From contig OX597825.1 of assembly GCA_951406725.2 (NCBI GenBank), positions 10,788,001-10,852,000 on the forward strand: DNA of 64,000 nt, given 5' to 3'. A program made the position numbers and the translations under genes. The notes under the pieces are model-generated. The model saw only the letters and a list, made by a program, of their open reading frames with translations, ran no database searches and was not told the DNA's origin. This DNA comes from Octopus vulgaris. Its lineage: Eukaryota. Positions within the stretch are counted from its first letter, which is position 1; each line of letters starts with the position of its first letter. Positions 3,579 through 25,902 of this stretch are shown one piece after another.

Positions 3579-6500
3579 GTATGCATATAATCATCTTCCA
3601 TGGGTTGGACAAAAATGTTTTTCAGTGCCTGCTGGAATCATAATCCAGACACACCATAAATTGTGCAGACATGCTAAACACTAAGGCAATTGTCATTTTA
3701 TTCATTCTTTCACTCATTCATCCATCCATACATACATACATGTTTTGTGCGTGTGTGTGTAATTGCACACACAATTACGGAGAAAGAGAGTGAGAAATGG
3801 TAAAGTGTAATGCATAAATGAAAATCAGAAGAATTCCTTTTTTTCTTTGTTGCAGATTGCAGAAGAGATGGAAAAAGAAAGAAAAATGTTTCAGTTACAA
3901 GCATGTGAAGTAAGTATCTTTAATGACAGGACGGGCATCTGACTGTAGAGCAATGCTTTAGTAATATTTATTCGTCTGACCTTTACTACCACTGCAAAAT
4001 AGACAATATAATGAACAAAATATCAGAATGAAAATTGTATTTTCACCATTCAGCTGGTCATTAAAAATTTTTGGGTAAAATCACAAAGTATGGAAGGCCA
4101 GCGGTGCCAAAATTAAAAAGTATGGAAGGCAAGCGGTGCCAAAATCACAAAGTATGGAAGACCAGCGGTGCCAAAATCACAAAGTATGGAAGACCTTGTG
4201 ATTTTTCGAAAAATTTTTGAAGAAGATTTCACCCAAAAATTTTTCGAAAATTTTCACTGAAAATTTTCCCCAAAAATTTTTCGAAATTTTCACCTAAAAT
4301 TTTTCCGAAAATTTTACCCAAAAGTTTTACGAAATTTTTCCGAAAATTTTACCCAAAAATTTTTCGAAAATTTTCCCAAAAATTTTTCGAAAATTTTCCC
4401 CAAAAATTTTTAAAAAATTTTTGCCGAAAATTTTCCCAAAAATTTTTTCGGTGATATTTGGGTAAAATTTTAAGTGAAAATTTTGGAAAAATTTTAAAAA
4501 AAGTATGGAAGGCCAGCGGTGCCAAAATCACAAAGTATGGAAGGCCAGCGGTGCCAAAATTAAAAAGTATGGAAGGCCAGCGGTGCCAAAATTATAAACT
4601 ATGGAAGGCCAGCGGTGCCAAAATCACAATGTATGGAAGGCCAGCGGTGCCAAAATCACAAACTATGGAAGGCCAGCGGTGCCAAAATCACAAAGTATGG
4701 AAAACCAGCAGTGCCCAAATCACAAAGATTTTGACAACGCTGGCCTTCCATACTTTGTGATTTTGGCACTGCTGGTCTTCCATACTTTGTGATTTTGGCA
4801 CCGCTTGCCTTCCATACTTTTTAATTTTGGCACCACTGGCCTTCCATACTTTGTGATTTTGGCACCGCTGGCCTTCCATACTTTGTGATTTTGGCATCGC
4901 TGGCCTTCCATACTTTGTGATCTTGGCACCGCTGGCCTTGTGATTTTTCGAAAATATTCCCCAAAAGTTTTTCCAAAATTTCAGCGAAAATTTTACCCAA
5001 AAATTTTACGAAAATTTTCACTGAAAATATTTCCCAAAAATTTTTCGAAATTTTCACCGAAAATTTTTCCCACAAATTTTTCGAAAATTTTCTCCGAAAA
5101 TTTTACCTAAACATTTTTCGAAAATTTTACCCAAAAATTTTTCGAAAATTTTACACAAAAATTTTTCGAAAATTTTCCCAAAAATTTTTCCAAAATTTTC
5201 GCCAAAAATTTTTCCAAAATTTTCATCGAAAATTTTCCCCAAAAATTTTTTGAAAATTTTTGCCGAAAATTTTCCCAAAAATTTTTTCGGTGATATCTGG
5301 ATAAAATTTTCAGTAAAAATTGTGGAAAAATTTTAAAATCACAAAGTATGGAAGGCCAGGTGTGCCAAAATCACAAAGTATGGAAGGCCAGTGGTGCCAA
5401 AATCACAAAGTATGGAAGGCCAGCGGTGCCAAAATCACAAAGTATGGAAGGCCAGCGATGCCAAAATTAAAAAGTATGGAAGGCCAGCGGTGCCAAAATC
5501 ACAAAGTATGGAAGGTCAGCGATGCCATATTAAAAAGTATGGAAGGCCAGCGGTGCCAAAATCACAATGTATGGAAGGCCAGCGGTGCCAAAATCACAAA
5601 GTATGTAAAACCAGCAGTGCCCAAATCACAAAGATTTTGGCACTGCTGGTCTTCCATACTTTGTGATTTTGGCACCCTGGCCTTCCATACTTTGTGATTT
5701 TGGCATTGCTGGCCTTCCATACTTTGTGATTTTGGCACACCTGGCCTTCCATACTTCGTGATTTTGGCACCGCTGGCCTTCCATACTTTTTAATTTTGGC
5801 ACACGCTGGCCTTCCATACTTTGTGATTTTGACATCGCTGGCCTTCCATACTTTGTGATTTGACACCGCTGGCCTTTGTGATTTTCGAAAAATTTTTGAA
5901 GATTTTCACCCAAAAATTTTTCGAAAATTTTCACTGAAAATTTTCCCCAAAAATTTTCGAAATTTTCACCTAAAATTTTTCCGAAAATTTTTCCGAAATT
6001 TTACCCAAAAGTTTTACGAAATTTTTCCGAAAATTTTACCCAAAAATTTTTCGAAAATTTTCTCAAAAATTTTCGAAAATTTTCCCCCAAAATTTTTAAA
6101 AAATTTTTGCCGAAAATTTTCCCAAAAATTTTTTCGGTGATATTTGGGTAAAATTTTCAGTGAAAATTTTGGAAAATTTTTAAAAAGTATGGAAGGCCAG
6201 CGGTGCCAAAATCACAAAGTATGGAAGGCCAGCGGTGCCAAAATTAAAAAGTATGGAAGGCCAGCGGTGCCAAAATCACAATGTATGGAAGTCCAGCGGT
6301 GCCAAAATTACAAACTATGGAAGGCCAGCGGTGCCAAAATCACAAAGTATTTTGACAACGCTGGCCTTCCATACTTTGTGATTTTGGCACCGCTGGTCTT
6401 CCATACTTTGTGAATTTTGGCACCGCTTGCCTTCCATACTTTGTGATTTTGGCACCGCTGGCCTTCCATACTTTGTGATTTTGGCACACCTGGCCTTCCA

Positions 6501-8669
6501 TACTTTGTGATTTTGGCATCGCTGGCCTTCCATACTTTGTGATCTTGGCACCGCTGGCCTTGTGATTTTTCGAAAATATTCCCCAAAAGTTTTTCCAAAA
6601 TTTCAGCGAAAATTTTACCCAAAAATTTTACGAAAATTTTCACAGAAGATTTTACCCAAAAATTTTTCGAAAATTTTCACTGAAAATATTCCCCAAAAAT
6701 TTTTCGAAATTTTCACCGAAAATTTTTCCCACAAATTTTTCGAAAAGTTTTTCCGAAAATTTTACCCAAAAATTTTTCGAAAATTTTCCCAAAAATTTTT
6801 CGAAAATTTTCCCCAAAAATTTTTCCAAAATTTTCATCGAAAATTTTCCCCAAAAATTTTTTGAAAATTTTTGCCGAAAATTTTCCCAAAAATTTTTTCG
6901 GTGATATCTGGATAAAATTTTCAGTGAAAATTGTGGAAAAATTTTAAAAAGAAGTATGGAAGGTCAGTGGTGCCAAAATCACAAAGTATGGAAGGCCAGC
7001 GGTGCCAAAATCACAAAGTATGGAAGGCCAGCAGTGCCAAAATTAAAAAGTATGGAAGGCCAGCGGTGCCAAAATCACAAAGTATGGAAGGCCAGCGATG
7101 CCATATTAAAAAGTATGGAAGGCCAGCGGTGCCAAAATCACAATGTATGGAAGGCCAGGTGTGCCAAAATTACAAACTATGGAAGGCCAGCGGTGCCAAA
7201 ATCACAAAGTATGGAAAACCAGCAGTGCCCAAATCACAAAGATTTTGGCAACGCTGGCCTTCCATACTTTGTGATTTTGGCACCGCTGGCCTTTTCCATA
7301 CTTTGTGATTTTGGCACCGCTGGTCTTCCATACTTTTAATTTTGGCACCGCTGGCCTTCCATACTTTGTGATTTTGGCACCGCTGGCCTTCCATACAACA
7401 GGTATTGTTATTTACATGTTAAACACTGAAAGAACTTACAATGAGATAATTATTGAGAGTTTCTTTAGCTTTCTCCAGAAAAGATTCCCCAATGGATTTA
7501 AACCACATCTTATTGGTACTTGGAAGTTCCTTCTTTTTCAGCCATGCACCAATCTGTCAGAAAGATAAAGAAAATAAACAAAAGTTCAACAAAGAAACCA
7601 GACAAATGGTTTTACCCTTTAGTGTTTAAACCGGCCATATCCGGACCAAATATTCTATATGTTTTATATTCAAACTGGCGATATCTAGCTTCTCACACCT
7701 AACCTACATTGACATTCTAAAAATAAACAATCACATTATTGAAACCTCAAAGTTATAAGATAATGCATGATTAATTAAAAACAATTTGAGTAAAAAAATA
7801 TTACATTTAACAGAGTAATCTGAACACTAAAGGGTTAACTTGTTCACAACCATATTTTCAAGGAAATACACTCTAAGTATGAGGCAGTGTTGAAAACTTC
7901 CTGGTTTGGGGTAGAAGAAAATACAGGGGAATCAGTTAATTATGATTTTATTCAACATATTCCCCTCTCAGATTCACACACTTATTGCAGCAGTCCTTCA
8001 GTTTTTCTAAGTCCTGTAAAAGAACCCAGAAGGTTGGGCCCCCAACAAGGCCTTTCGTGACACCTTTAAAGCCAGGAACTTTACAGAACCTCCTTGTACT
8101 TCAATTCATTAAAAAAATAATCAAGAATTTGAAAAAATTTACTCAAAAATATTTTTTGTTATTAAGCTGGTGTTTGGACCACAACAAAAAGTTCTTCTTT
8201 AAAGTTATAAAGGATGGTTTTAATATAAACAAGAATGCTTTTAAAACAAAATATTTTGCTTCATAGAACTGAAGGTGGTCTTAGGCAAGTTGGTATAAAA
8301 ATGGTTAAGTAATAAACAAGAAAAAAAAAAGCTCATTAACCCTGTAGCATTCAGATCAATCTGCCAAATGCAATGCTCATACAGTCATGTTTTGAATTAA
8401 ACATGCTTTACCTTGTAGCTTCGAGATTTTGATGGTATGATTGTTCAGGTTTAAAATGATATTGTAGGGCAGATGTAAGGGGTATGATCTGGTCGGTTTG
8501 AGAATAAAGCAGGTAGAATGTTTTGGCTGGATATGACCAGTTTAAATGCCGAAGGGTCAAAGTTATTTAACCCAATAACTCCAACTTAGGAATATAGATT
8601 AAGATTACAGGAATTCAGTAGAAGTATATAAATATATATATATGTATATATATACTGTAATATAATGTG

Positions 8670-18900: not shown

Positions 18901-21900
18901 CTGGAATATGACGTCACTACACCTGCAAAGTGGATGCAATAATATATTTTTTTAATAGACAATTAAAAATGATTGATACTTACTCAAGAAGTGCATGGGT
19001 GTTGTTTCGACGAAGGAACTTGAGAAAGAAAAGTCTTAGTTCTGGTGTGTCCATCACGGTTTTCACCGAAATAATCTGTGGAAAGGAAAGAAAAGACAAA
19101 AAGAATGGAAAAAACATTTCTGATTCTTAACATTTTTCTGGGTTCCTTAACATCCAATATATAAATCCCATGTGTACAGTCACATGTACAACTATTACTA
19201 CATGAGTTAGAGCTCCATGTAGATTATCCTTATCCAGTCAGCTTCCATCATAGTGGTTAGCCAACCACTGCTCTTTGTAGTGTTACTAGTTATGGACTTC
19301 AGATATTAGATCTCTGTAAGAGAATGCAATAAAGTGTTTCCCTGATGACCCATTGTGGTTAGGGATCCAAATGCATTCGGAACATCCACTGCAATGGTGA
19401 ACCTAATGTAGAAACTATTAATTTATATTATTTACATTATTTACATTTGACGGATATTTGTCCTCATCTTGTTTGTTGTTAACACAACATTTCGGGTGAT
19501 ATACTCTCCAGCATTCATCAAATGTCTTGGGGAAATTTCAAACCTGGGTCCTCATTCTTAAGGTATTTTTCAATGTTGTTGTTGTTGTTCTTCTTCTTCT
19601 TCTTCTTATTATTATTATTATTATTATTATTATCCATTATTATTATTTTATTCATATTATTAATTTGTACTTGTGTTTATCTTAATTTTCCAATACACAC
19701 ACACACACACAAACACACATGCAAACACACACACATGTGTGTGCACGCACACACACACACAAACACATTCATATGCTGGTGCCATGTATAAAGCACCCAT
19801 GCTGGTTCCACATATAAAACACTGGTGCTGGTGCCAGGTAAAAAGCACCCAGTACACTCTGTAGAGTTGTTGGCATTTGGAAGGGCATTCAGCCAAAACA
19901 GACAACTGAAGCCTCCTGCAGCTCCCTGGATTGCCAGCTCCTATCAAACTGTCTAACTTGTGTTAACACAGAAAATGAACATTAAATAATGATGATGATG
20001 ATGATGATGATGATGTGAACCATAACAAGACTTACTTTCTGACCAGGAAGAGTTAATTCTTCATTGACACTTCCTTCCCCATAACATTTATAGTCAGGGC
20101 CTCCAATGGCGTGAATCCTCTTCTCACAAGTCGTCTTAGCAACAGTTAACTGAAAAGAAAAATAGGAGATATAGAACTAAAACGTTTTTAGTGTGTGCTT
20201 ATATAATTTTTAAGGCAACCTGTTGAAGAAGGTGGTAACTTCTGATATAGAATAAAAAGGGTATCTTCACTACCCTTGTAAACAACCACCCTCTACCAGT
20301 GCAAAGATAAAAACATACCCAATTTACATTGTAAAACAGCTGATGAGAGGAAGGGCATCCAGCCATAAAGTCCATGTCAAAAATACCAACACACAGGCAT
20401 AGACGTGGTTGCTTGGATAAAAAGTTTGCATCCCAACCCACATGGTTTCAGTTCAATCTCACTTCAAGGAACCTGACCATAGAAAATCCACCCCAATAAA
20501 GTCTATCTGAACCACGCTTGCATGGAAAAGTGAACGCTACAATGATGACGATGGCAACATAATTGGCTGGTTTTTCTTTGTTGTTGTGTATAGGAGATGG
20601 AGAAGGCCAACAGTAGGTGAGGAAATGTCATGAGACCAGTGCAACCCATGCTAGCATTGAAAGATGGATATAAAATAATGCCAAGTTGACCTATGTAGAG
20701 TTTGAACCCAAAAAGTAAAGGGACATAACCAAATATTTCTCCGAAGTATTTTGTCCAACACTCTACTGATTCTGCCATGATTAAAATGCTAAGTCAAATT
20801 CCTTACTTGGTTGATGTATATCTTCAAATTCCTGGCTTTCAAAAGATCTCCTTTTGCCATACTCTTTGGTACATGAGCTTTAGCTGAAGAAAAGAAAAAA
20901 CAAAAATAAGTATAACGAGTCTACTTGTCCAAGTTTTACTGTGTCATTGGTGCCAAGATTAATTTTCTAGAGTTTGAAGAATCTTGTGAATGTTTTATCT
21001 CCAGAAGTTATTGTGAATATATATTTTTAGATAACATTTTAATTCTAGAGATTAATTTTTGCTTAAAAATATATTTCTGGTTTACAACTAGTAAGTAGTG
21101 CAACTATTCTATCAGCTCAGTCAATTGTGATCCCCAACAGAGTTTAAAAAGATGAAAAAAAAAAGTAATTAAGGTATTTACCTGTGCTGATTCCTTGTGA
21201 TTTCTTCCAGTTGTTAATAGTTGTAGCTTGCAGAATTTCACTTATGATATTATATCTACAAAAATCAATAAATCAGTATTATATATTTTGTTTATCTCAT
21301 GTAAGTCTTTGTAGAAATAAAGTGGTACAGTAGAAGAGGTATTTGGCTACCAGCCTATGCAACATACTATTCTATGTAACTGTCTGACTTTATGCTAACA
21401 AATAAAAAAATACACTGAAGCTAAAACTTTGATAATGGTGATGATTATAATAATCATCTTTAATGGAATATCTTATGTGTTCTTTCATAAAGGCTGAAGA
21501 AGAACAGAACTCGTGGCATTAGCAGGCAGCCTTCCCCAGATTGATGAGGTCAATGCAGCTACTGTTCAGTTTGAGCAGGGAAAATGTGGATAGGAAGACA
21601 ATTCTAGGGGATTGTAGCTCTGGGAAGGGACAGTAGAGAAAAGTGTTTGTTGTAGGATCAGTGAAGAGGGACACACTAGTAATAATGAGAGAAAGAGTGA
21701 GCATCTCTATTAAACGCACAGCACAAAAAAAAACACAGGTGGATGAGAAAACAAGAGAACAACTAATTGTTTTTCTTACCGAAGTTGTTTGAGGCATTCA
21801 ATGTCTTCACAGTTTTGAATCATTTTGACAAACTCTTCATATGTGGCAGCGTAAGAATAGGTTTTCCTGGTGTCTTCGGACAACTTGGCACGGTAACTTA

Positions 21901-24312
21901 AGTAGGAGCGCAGTTGTTCATTGATAAATTCCGGATCACATAACAGATCAATGGCAGGCTTCAGAACTAGAAGATGAGACAGCAAAAATAAATTTATCCA
22001 ACAACAACAGCAAAAACAGCAGCAGCTGCCGCCACCATGACGACGACAATGTCCTTCATTAAACAGACTCCAAAAATGAAATTGACAGTATACAACCATT
22101 CTATCGCCCCACCACCGTCCATATCTCAATGAGATATTTAGAAATTTAATATTTCTGATTTTGGTGATCAGTGAATAAACTTCACTGAAAATTAGATATA
22201 TATATTTACGAAGTCTAGACAGATATCTTCAGCTAGCAGGCTTCTGCTACTCTAGACCGATGATGGGCAAAGACCTAGAAACATGCGTGTCTCTAGATGC
22301 AGGCCTAGCTGTTGGGGGTATTTGTCTCCCCTTCGTAAATATATAAGGACACAGTAAGTGTGTCGAAGCCGACAGGAAGCGTCGATGCTTCCTAGGGCTA
22401 AACAGCGGTGGTGTAATCCCCTACTGTCACGTTAAATTGACAGTATACAACCATTCTACTTTAGATTGTTATCTGAATAAGTCCAACTATTTCTACCTCA
22501 CACATAAACATATATAAAGACACAGTTATGGCGTAGATAAGCTGTTTATTAAAAAGAAATTTGCATCCAAAATGCTTTTAAATCCTGACAAAAAGAACAA
22601 TAAAATCCCCTTATATCTGCTTCCAGTCCTCAATAGATTACAAAGTCACATGATTAAATATAATAAAAAGAAAATTAATTAAAACATTTATTTTTCTAAA
22701 CTGGAATGAAATGGAAAAAGTTCATCAGTAAATTATTTTGTTCGTTTTTAAATCTAAGCAGGGGGCTTCTTGTAATATTGATAAGTGAAAAAAATCAAAG
22801 AGAAGCAGTGTCTATATAGTCATTCAATCTGCAAGAAATAGCAGTGAAATTTCTCACAAATTAGATCTTGATGTCTTAAAATGGGAATGGAGCATTCATT
22901 AGCCACTACACACATTTTTTTCTCTCCTTGTTTTTTTATCTGTGTACCTTTCTGTAGAAGAGCGTAGGCTTGAAACGTAAAAGACTTTTTCTATTCCTGA
23001 GCGCTATACTAATACATCTGTTTGTTTTGTACACCACTTGCCTTCGTCTTTTTCCCTTTATATATCATATATATATATATATATATATATATGCCATATA
23101 ATGTATATCAGCCACAAGTTCCAGTCCTTGTCACAGTGTGGTGGCTTCTGTGCCTCAATGGCCCTGAGAGCTATGCCAGCAGAGTGCCAGCACCTGATAT
23201 CCAATGTGTCATTCCTTTTAAGATCATACTATATCACTTGAAAGAAATTTGACTGCTATTTCTAGCCAGTCGAGTGACCATATAACAAGTTGTCATCCTG
23301 ATCCCAGGTATTGAGTAGTGCATTAATTAAAAATTAAACTTTGGTAAGATGCTGAAAACAAAGGGAAGCTTACCAGACACAGTGAAAATCTCCCTGAGTA
23401 AATGTCGAACGATATCACAATGAGCATAGTTTGTAGGTAGAAGCACAAACATTACAGAATTGGTTAGAAATCTAAGGAATTCTTTCTCCTTTTCTTCATT
23501 CTCCAACCAGGGATAAATTGTGTATTTGTGATTGGCTGATGATTCCTTTGACCTAACAGCAGCAACAGAAGAAGAAATAAAGAAACTTACAGATCTTGTC
23601 ACTTTTCTGATGATCTGTGACTTTTAAAAGGAAAATGGATTCACTGGAGTATAGAAATCTTACAATGTAATCTATTATCATCAATATTGATTTCAAAGGT
23701 GGGGAGCTGGCACAAACGTTAGCACGCCGGGTGAAATGCTTAGCAGTATTTCGTCTGTCGTTATGTTCTGAGTTCAAATTCTGCCGAGATCGACTTTGCC
23801 TTTCCTCCTTTCAGGGTCGATAAATAACGTACCCATTTCATACTGGGGTCGATGTAATCGACTTAATCTGTTTGCCTATCCTTGTTTGTCCCCTCTATGT
23901 TTAGCCCCTTGTGGGTAGTAAAGAAATAGGTATTTCGTCTGTCATTAAGTTCTGAGTTCAAATTCCGCTGAGGTCGACTTTGCCTTTCATCCTTTCAGGG
24001 TCGATAAATAAAGTACCAGTTTCGCACTGGGGTCGATGTAATCGACTTAATCCCTTTGTCTGTCCCCTCTATGTTTAGCCCCTTACGGGTAGTAAAAAAA
24101 AAAATATTATCAATATTGATTTCAAATTTTGGCACAAGGCCAACAATATCAGAGAAGGGGTATTGATTATATCGATCTCAGTGCTCAACCGATCCCAAAA
24201 GGATGAAAGGCAAAGTTGACCTCAGCAGAAATTGAACTCGGAACGTAATGACGGATGAAATGCTGCTATGTCCACTTACCAATTCCTTTTGTGAGTAAGG
24301 AAAAAGAAACAT

Positions 24313-24361
<49 letters not shown>

Positions 24362-25902
24362 TTTAACGTCCATTTTCCATGCTAGCATGGGTTGGATGAT
24401 TTTGACTGAGGGCTGGCGAACCAGATGGCTGCACCAGGCTCCAATCTTGATCTGACAGTGTTTCTACAGCTGGATGCCCTTTCCTAACGCCAACCATTCC
24501 GAGAGTGTAGTGGATGCTTTTTACGTGCCACCGACGCAGGGGCCAGACAGGCAGTACTGGCAATGACCTCGCTTGAATCTTTTTACACATGCCACCGGCA
24601 CAGGTGCCAGTAAGGGAACGCTGGTAACGGTCATGCTCGAATGATGCCCTTTTACGTGCCACCGGTACGGAAGCCAGTTAGCCGCTCTGGCAAATATGAG
24701 GGAAAGAATTACTTATCACTCATATGGCTTACTGTGTCTCTTTGATGATATTTGATTGAAAGAGCCCAAAAATGAATTGGACAAAGAAACAAATAAAAAA
24801 ATATGCAAGAAAAATACTTACGTTTTCGATGACAACCGTATCTCTTTAAAGTGATTGTGTAATGCATTAATGAGGTCCTGCGTCATGAACTTCACCATGT
24901 CAACTTTCGACAGACGAACAGACAGTTTCTCTATTACAATCCAAATGTCAGATCTGTGAGTAAGGAAAAAGAAACAAAGAATGGCCAATATAAATGGACC
25001 AATTCTGAAGATACACCTGTAGTATAAAAAAGGTATTATAAAAGGAGAAAGGGGCTCTCTATCCCACTTTTGACCAGGCTCCTGTGGCTTTTATGGGTTT
25101 TTCCATGAGTAACCTTTCGAAGCGCCTCCCCCCTATTGGGAATTTCAATTGTTATATTTTCGTTGTTTTCTCTGGAATTTTTACACGTTTTTTTTGCAAA
25201 CGGACAAAACCTTTTGTAACTTTTGTCCTGTGTTTTGTCCCTTTATGTTTTAATTTTTGTCAGCCCTTGTGGCCAATAAAAGAATTAATTATTATTATTA
25301 GACAAAAACCAAGTAGATTCCCAACGTAGATTATGCAAATCAAAAGAGGAAAGCATTACTCATACAGTAAGTGAATGTAGCATGCTGGCACAGAAAGAAT
25401 ACAAGACATGGCAATCTAAGGAGAGCAATCCACTAGAAGCTATGTAGAAAGCTAGGATTTGAACATACGGATAAAGAAATACAAGATGTTGTGGGACTTT
25501 AACATTCAGACTGACAGAGTAATAGAAGCTAGAAGGCCTGGTTTAGTAGCAGTAGATAAAGAGAATAGAAAGTGCCAGATAATTGACTTTACAGTCCCAA
25601 ATGATGAAGAAATTAATATGAGGCATATAGAAAAATAGCAAAGTCCCTGGACCTAGCTATTTAATTACAGAGACTATGGAAAGTGTAGGTAAAATGTATC
25701 CCTGTAGTTACAGGTGCATTAGGAACTATCCCTAAAGATCTGAACAGATGTATAGAGGAAATAGGCATAAAACCCAGTTTAGTACAGTTGCAGAAAACAG
25801 TGTTATTAGGGGACAGCTAGGGTACTTAGGAGGGTTTTTGGCATCTAAGGTTACTTGCTGTAGCCCGATGTTAGGATTCTTTTCTTTTCCAACAGTTGAG
25901 TG

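Follow-up and report, generated by a model that had tools for sequence, protein, structure and literature searches.

A hammerhead retrozyme of Octopus vulgaris with a putative snRNA-type promoter, probably a repeated start-site target of a LINE

Here we describe an insertion at positions 22079 to 22458 of a 64,000-nucleotide stretch of Octopus vulgaris DNA (hereafter called the window) that, we are almost certain, belongs to a known kind of element, the non-LTR retrozymes. It is probable that this tandem retrozyme unit carries an snRNA-type promoter, that it lands in the genome in the pattern of Penelope-like elements, and that a LINE of the L1/Tx1 group has repeatedly inserted at its predicted start site and has then been copied together with it. 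Together they are likely to form a parasite system of three tiers in which start sites are targeted. The parts of the window copy are the following:

22079..22458, + strand: whole insertion, 1.07 units long, 5'-truncated, its 3' end being the 'no-tail' end of the family
22104..22458, + strand: single 355-bp unit, GC 42%, longest ATG reading frame 28 aa
22079..22103, + strand: first copy of a 25-mer, the tail end of the preceding unit
22434..22458, + strand: second copy of the 25-mer, the fixed 3' end of tail-less arms
22104..22159, + strand: segment that in other copies makes up the ~56-nt tail of one arm
22167..22175, + strand: PSE-like motif ATCAGTGAA at -58, of putative function
22197..22207, + strand: TATA-like TA run at about -28, of presumed function, doubling as outer rod arm
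22225..22241, + strand: predicted +1 and the 13-17 bp duplicated on LINE insertion, unoccupied in the window copy
22199..22345, + strand: rod in which 22199-22256 pairs with 22292-22345, its outer helix lying upstream of the predicted +1
22251..22297, + strand: type I hammerhead motif with stem I 22251-56/22292-97, core 22257-63 (U4C), stem II 22264-67/22274-77, GAAAC 22278-82 and a predicted cut after 22291
22348..22445, + strand: 3' hairpins 22348-64, 22367-22400 and 22422-45, the first two of which entered the covariation test and covary between families

The insertion lies antisense within an intron of a PXA-domain gene, the PXA exons of the host being on the - strand at the upstream side. 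The closing stem, the hairpins and the rod described in the initial annotation were found where it had placed them, as was the hammerhead-like motif (CCGATGA at 22257, GAAAC at 22278 and GUC at 22289-91). The strand preference in folding that it had put forward is real but modest, both strands beating their shuffles: 22104-22433 folds at -131.3 kcal/mol on the + strand (z = -9.2) and at -116.4 kcal/mol on the - strand (z = -6.9). Folding of the full unit (22104..22458) as a circle again gave the stronger structure in the sense orientation (-132.1 kcal/mol, z = -10.2, against -120.7 kcal/mol, z = -7.1, for the antisense), and the sense fold beats the antisense in 9 of 10 family representatives. 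The minimum free energy fold of the unit does not show the hammerhead core as it would be when active, and a scan of 20000-25000 against Rfam (E ≤ 5), a check that the annotation had also proposed, returned no hammerhead match and only weak unrelated ones. A peculiarity of the window copy is the presence of CCTAGAAAC where most copies have CCCTGAAAC.

Comparison with other copies altered several parts of the earlier picture. The exact 25-bp direct repeat (22079-22103/22434-22458) is present as claimed, but it is no target site duplication (TSD): the 25-mer is sequence of the element itself, through which units run head to tail, and hairpin 22422-22445 straddles the supposed TSD boundary. It occurs twice in 20 of the 29 other copies fetched, a selection biased by a query that held both repeats. 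The unit is 355 bp and not 330 nt long, and the U4C change, which had been attributed to this copy, is shared by 27 of 30 aligned copies, which read CCGATGA. As for the suggestion of a circularly permuted monomer, the 5' ends do vary, whereas the 3' ends fall at two fixed points.

The assignment to dispersed non-LTR retrozymes with a type I hammerhead is upheld by the multiplicity of the element and by its covarying stems; other copies, tandem arrays and covariation had been named beforehand as evidence to look for, and all three were found. One 30-mer of the unit has 2,420 matches in the genome at no more than one mismatch (control, 0), and a DNA search that scored 40 of 2,627 candidates recovered full-length copies with 89-96% identity, so that the window element is one among thousands of dispersed copies. 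Head-to-tail units occur at four loci (L004, L084, L268 and L269), and in length, base composition and lack of a reading frame the unit falls within the range given for retrozymes (150-450 bp, GC below 50%, non-coding). The core CCGATGA was found exactly 119 times and CTGATGA 9 times, which makes U4C a family-wide state, the nine CTGATGA copies fitting decay of a CpG. About ten divergent sister families were also found. Unit DNA occurs in sequencing runs of four organisms, none of them recorded as an RNA run. Contigs assembled from three presumed RNA runs and from one DNA run extend over the unit, contigs being of a nature that cannot show ends or circles. Family E2 (L268, L269, L262) forms near-identical 362-bp tandem arrays with the core TTGAAAA and is the strongest candidate for present-day retrozyme activity.

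Among 11 family representatives, 19 of 42 pairs show double-sided change, including 6 of 6 in stem I and 3 of 4 in stem II; this exceeds all of 500 shuffles, with slid controls far lower, in a test whose structure was named by the analyst and whose score is inflated by the relatedness of the families. Upstream of the predicted start, 79% of the outer rod helix is paired and 2 of its 9 pairs show compensatory change, which would fit a monomer reaching from hammerhead to hammerhead, or a circle. The structure of the unit thus appears to be under selection. Hammerhead cores across the families include U3-A8, a known active hammerhead covariant (PMC3088659, PMC4209133). U4C is described as lowering activity without necessarily abolishing it, and U-U as a tolerated pair at the foot of stem II (PMC3088659); eight of nine Xenopus retrozymes assayed did not cleave (10.64898/2026.07.22.740005). 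U4C and U-U are best regarded as natural variants compatible with activity, and cleavage is a prediction here.

The anatomy of the insertions was examined in two sets of loci. In all 39 loci picked by their hammerhead one arm ends at about 22458 or at about 22159 of the next unit. Among 27 distinct loci picked by a 3' 30-mer, an inverted arm is present in 16, both arms reach a fixed end in 12, every one of these combining a tail with a no-tail end, and (TA)3 repeats adjoin 15. Truncation at the 5' end, partial tandems, an inverted 5' copy, a tail at one end and a bias towards TA repeats are the anatomy described for Penelope-like elements (PMC8557442, Craig et al. 2021). The variable 5' ends, fixed 3' ends, inverted arms and one-sided tail therefore point to Penelope-type integration, and the retrozyme has the 5' truncation, inverted arm, one-end tail and microsatellite bias of a non-autonomous Penelope-like element; it differs from the elements described in having no reading frame and a tail of about 56 nt as against their 30-40 (PMC8557442). 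Vertebrate retrozymes have likewise been linked to Penelope-like elements (10.64898/2026.07.22.740005). Autonomous Penelope-like elements co-occur in the octopus genome, where a search with profile PF01541 yielded 150 scored GIY-YIG matches, many of them in 781-aa RT/GIY-YIG frames with hammerhead-like 3' motifs. In a sample of 30 GIY-YIG loci no DNA shared with the unit was found by DNA similarity and tblastn, and the 111 retrozyme loci held no Penelope reading frame upstream, a single fragment in the opposite orientation being the only trace.

A young Penelope-like family with 781-aa frames (L134, L136, L139, L230) has a CxxxxC-type linker, TA-repeat flanks and, near its 3' end, a minimal hammerhead-like motif of the form TTGATAA.

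Searching between hammerhead pairs 2-9 kb apart for enclosed elements returned either a 5.4-kb LINE (ORF1 with a zinc knuckle; ORF2 with APE, RT and zinc finger) or a 1.65-kb ORF1-only element (zf-CCHC), whose protein has ~30% identity to ORF1 of the long LINE, the two having no DNA similarity. The LINE has the domains of the Tx1 clade (an ORF1 zinc knuckle and an ORF2 with APE, RT and zinc finger), which are common to L1 as well, and on its sequence we provisionally file it in the L1/Tx1 group; similarity of its ORF2 is to structures of L1 endonucleases and to a pol-like protein of Ciona, and relatives in other species form a group at 37% identity. The insertion point is equivalent to 22225 of the window, with 22225-22241 duplicated and TSDs of 13-17 bp, and one locus (L074) holds three separate insertions at this site.

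The 3' ends of these elements concentrate on the retrozyme. For the ORF1-only element, 48 of all 75 ends join a retrozyme directly, 7 stand in tandem after its TSD and 20 lie elsewhere (the pattern search gave 48 of 76 rows, from which one false match and one duplicate were removed and to which two decayed cores were added). Among the best 30 of 150 matches to the C-terminus of ORF2, counted by eye and with U2 identified by Rfam, 22 join a retrozyme directly, 3 join U2 at +1, 3 are in tandem and 2 are elsewhere; by the 3' end of the long LINE, 10 of 16 matches join the unit, with 0 of 5 in one subfamily. The fractions at the retrozyme site (22/30 and 55/75), which copying as cargo inflates, exceed the 20% of flanks used elsewhere to define a target (PMC4494074). 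The LINE also occupies +1 of U1 (L367, L368), and in U2 it inserts at +1 and not at nucleotide 38/39, the site of Keno. Distant LINE subfamilies lie 30-33 nt behind TATA boxes (L266, L273, L279, L333-335) or at unexplained sites, in a set where 7 of 20 loci have no clear 3' end. Most of the off-target sites examined lack an ATCAGT motif, and Rfam recognised only U2 and one 5S gene in the other target flanks.

Several LINE loci deserve description in their own right. A ~60-kb gap in a U1 cluster (C18:48990073-49051795; L317, L367, L368) contains stacked, partly nested LINEs that end at U1 +1. Head-to-tail arrays of 5-9 LINE copies were found at C9:59208606-59251235, C5:29183372-29204892 and C2:73046217-73068475 (L262-L267, L336); they contain many intact frames of 1,140-1,148 aa with only short TSDs in between and are very young. 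The 1,148-aa subfamily (L271, L272, L266) targets a ~65-nt hairpin ending in a T run that has no Rfam match and is possibly an undescribed small RNA gene or the end of a repeat. At L273 a ~517-bp tandem unit has a TATA box and an initiator-like start, at which another LINE subfamily inserts. Two off-target ORF1-only insertions (L104, L189) have a common repeat downstream, which suggests another multicopy target.

What the target sites have in common is a distance. In 33 of 35 U1/U2 loci the motif ATYAGT lies at -57 to -61 from +1, a LINE occupying its place in the two exceptions, and the window unit contains the U1 promoter 9-mer ATCAGTGAA at a spacing equal to that of the U1 promoters of the same genome. 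At 21 LINE junctions in retrozymes of families A, B, C, D, E, E2, F, I and J the offset of ATCAGT is -56 to -60, at two U2 junctions it is -59, and at three family-G junctions, all of one clade, it is -63/-66; these offsets rest on 28 junction anchors chosen by eye (L275 gave no row), and microhomology leaves an uncertainty of a few bases. The chance of ATCAGT at the right offset is 0.66% per site, the retrozyme families being related and hence not independent tests. Family C has 5 fewer bases between the motif and the homologous ATCT, and there the LINE insertion point is displaced by 5 nt as well, which returns it to -58. The sequence at the insertion site varies (ATCT, AACT, ATCG, AGCG, ATAC), as does its distance to the hammerhead (about 19-32 nt). 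The insertion site is constant in its distance from the motif and not in sequence.

A second indication of the start comes from the 5' ends of LINEs elsewhere. U2 LINEs (L276, L277, L406), one at a TATA site (L334) and one of another subfamily (L203) begin, after the TSD, with 10-14 nt that match the beginning of another retrozyme target, as expected if the donor RNA started at the insertion point; the heads at L188 and L202 are ambiguous by 3-5 nt, and the U2 heads may be a single event spread in arrays. With a proximal element at a fixed distance from +1, as in PSE promoters, the unit probably carries an snRNA-type promoter with its predicted start at 22225, as judged from motif spacing and LINE heads. 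A PSE together with a TATA box is the layout of Pol III U6 genes in vertebrates. Pol III transcription is judged unlikely here because the 5' ends of the LINEs hold T runs. The sequence AATAAAC/AATAGAC, 20 nt past the end of the tail, might, as a guess, be a 3' box.

That insertions of the LINE are independent, and not solely copies of earlier composites, is indicated by several observations. Three 5'-truncated LINEs (L092, L174, L221) are flanked by both halves of the target and a TSD and therefore represent true targeted insertion. A tree built from the 44 ORF1-only copies of 1,150 nt or more requires 16 changes of target family (minimum 7), with L180 labelled off-target despite a family-E left half, and family A never formed a single clade in 200 bootstraps. 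Copying as cargo occurs too: 5 of 12 loci checked (L087, L165, L208, L215, L223) consist of two back-to-back arms that both start inside the LINE and run into the 3' half of the retrozyme, and four of the five composites have a tail on one arm only. Penelope machinery has likely copied the LINE and retrozyme as a composite. We also considered the LINE and unit as one element with ribozyme-bearing LTRs, a candidate ruled out by the TSDs, the empty units and the switching between families.

Taking these results into a single model, an autonomous Penelope-like element would supply reverse transcriptase and GIY-YIG nuclease in trans. Pol II would start at 22225 from a PSE/SNAPc promoter and read into the next unit, and two hammerheads would then excise a 355-nt monomer that holds the promoter and can circularise. 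The promoter complex would position the LINE, in the way that TFIIIB positions Ty3 and TRE5-A. The LINE would thereby capture the promoter and would in addition spread passively as cargo of the retrozyme. On the part played by promoter factors we lean towards their positioning the LINE. With only slight preference we extend this to an animal LINE tethered to +1 by a Pol II snRNA-type/TBP complex, for which retrozymes may be self-renewing mobile landing pads that offer a promoter, the sparing of U1/U2 and carriage by Penelope, in a chain of Penelope, retrozyme and LINE on which the ORF1-only element would be the fourth rider.

The main competing explanation keeps the retrozyme as described and lets the LINE find its site by sequence, through several endonuclease subfamilies, aided by open chromatin and by read-through RNA pairing with the nicked target; the distance from the promoter would then be a by-product. 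Specificity in the Tx1 clade is usually ascribed to the endonuclease, and co-transcribed target RNA strengthens R2-like targeting (PMC4494074). Moreover, the junctions share A(T/A/G)C, one subfamily sits always on ATCG, and U2 and family D2 have ATCGCT in common at the junction, so that sequence does contribute to targeting. Near-identical ORF1-only copies nevertheless lie in families with unrelated site sequences, the homologous ATCT of family C is skipped for the base at -58, and U1 (ATAC), U2 and the TATA -30 sites are targets as well; as a full account we hold it to be unlikely. Far less probable, and largely refuted, is that LINEs entered retrozymes by chance on a few occasions and that Penelope machinery then multiplied the composites. 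The composite inverted insertions at five loci, the absence of the left target half in about a third of the junctions examined and the single clade of family-G copies are what it would lead one to expect, yet it is opposed by the 16 or more switches of target family that the 44 copies require, by the triple occupation of one site in L074 and the truncated copies with TSDs, and insertions into U1/U2 cannot arise in this way.

The nature of the unit has also been weighed against two other accounts. It could be the pseudo-LTR (pLTR) of an autonomous Penelope-like element, the copies being truncated ends of that element and no self-propagating non-coding family; the fully Penelope-like anatomy of the insertions, the relationship of vertebrate retrozymes to pLTRs (10.64898/2026.07.22.740005) and the fact that the search for a parent covered a sample of loci give this some plausibility. 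The head-to-tail units at four loci, the 111 loci with no Penelope frame upstream and a hammerhead canonical in size on a long rod, unlike the minimal motif of the 781-aa family, make it quite improbable. For the original version, a 330-nt circularly permuted monomer with a 25-bp TSD and a decayed core, there speak the exact direct repeat and the lack of an inverted arm or tail in the window copy; the other copies refute it, the 25-mer being element sequence, the 3' ends fixed and U4C the state of the family, and its probability is close to nil.

Our preferred reading, that of a start-site-targeted retrozyme, joins several known systems. Metazoan non-LTR retrozymes (PMC7229834, Cervera & de la Pena 2020; 10.64898/2026.07.22.740005, Li, Clavereau & Pollet 2026) are alike in the non-coding tandem unit with GC below 50%, the type I hammerhead, the high self-pairing and the co-occurrence with Penelope-like elements, and a mussel family has units of 350-390 bp (PMC7229834). 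The octopus retrozyme is unlike those in its family-wide U4C and U10.1-U11.1 and in being present mostly as dispersed partial tandems, and no LINE targeting is reported for them in the excerpted text of the two studies. PMC7229834 mentions neither octopus nor cephalopods, and the sample of the preprint consisted of vertebrates, insects and a coral (10.64898/2026.07.22.740005). Newt satellite 2 (Coats, Zhang & Epstein 1994, cited in PMC2220036) is similar in being a hammerhead repeat that reportedly has an snRNA-type promoter of its own, internal to the repeat, for transcription by Pol II; it belongs to another phylum, and the octopus promoter is deduced from sequence spacing and LINE heads. 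Our literature search found no report of a retrozyme combined with a start-site LINE, though an earlier annotation may exist in Repbase or Dfam, and the words 'ribozyme' and 'retrozyme' are absent from the available text of a paper on O. vulgaris repeats and its supplement (PMC13282606).

The LINE resembles Tx1L, Keno and Tx1-Mar (PMC4494074) and Utopia (PMC4640811) in its APE-RT-zinc finger ORF2, its TSDs, its multicopy targets, which in those elements include transposons and U2, and its tandem insertion. Keno and Utopia share an insertion site at U2 nucleotide 39 (PMC4640811), and a 'Sat' target is listed without detail in a figure legend (PMC4494074). The octopus LINE differs in its use of +1 of U1, U2 and retrozymes, targets unrelated to one another in sequence, and in riding on the transposition of its own target. 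Ty3 inserts at Pol III starts via TBP/Brf1, and ORF1p of TRE5-A binds TFIIIB (PMC5911963); Ty3 and TRE5-A/NLTR-A of Dictyostelium, whose insertion position is set by a promoter complex, may thus be analogous (PMC5911963). These act on Pol III genes in compact genomes, whereas the octopus LINE, with its putative tethering, would act in an animal on Pol II promoters of the snRNA and TATA types, and its main target is mobile. HAL1, the 'half-L1' credited to Bao and Jurka in 2010, is reportedly an ORF1-only non-autonomous LINE derivative. The octopus ORF1-only element (1.65 kb, zf-CCHC) is alike in type and shares the start-site targeting of the long LINE.

If our reading is true, the insertion of a LINE is set by its distance from a Pol II promoter element and not by sequence, the cases of promoter-positioned insertion described so far being those at Pol III promoters of yeast and amoebae (PMC5911963). 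LINE junctions would then mark, as a genetic readout, the start of retrozyme transcription, and there is a hint that an snRNA-type promoter like that of newt satellite 2 is a wider strategy of retrozymes. The anatomy of the insertions would give direct support from an invertebrate for Penelope-driven retrozyme mobility, with cargo of up to about 3 kb, a question left open by 10.64898/2026.07.22.740005. With their U4C, U3-A8 and U-U variants, the roughly ten natural families of hammerheads provide material for cleavage assays.

Two other repeats lie in the window. A common SINE-like repeat in inverted arrangement occupies 23946-24245, where a weak Rfam match to MIR2630 falls far below threshold, and 4400-7400 is a long compound tandem repeat that gives rise to spurious repetitive reading frames.
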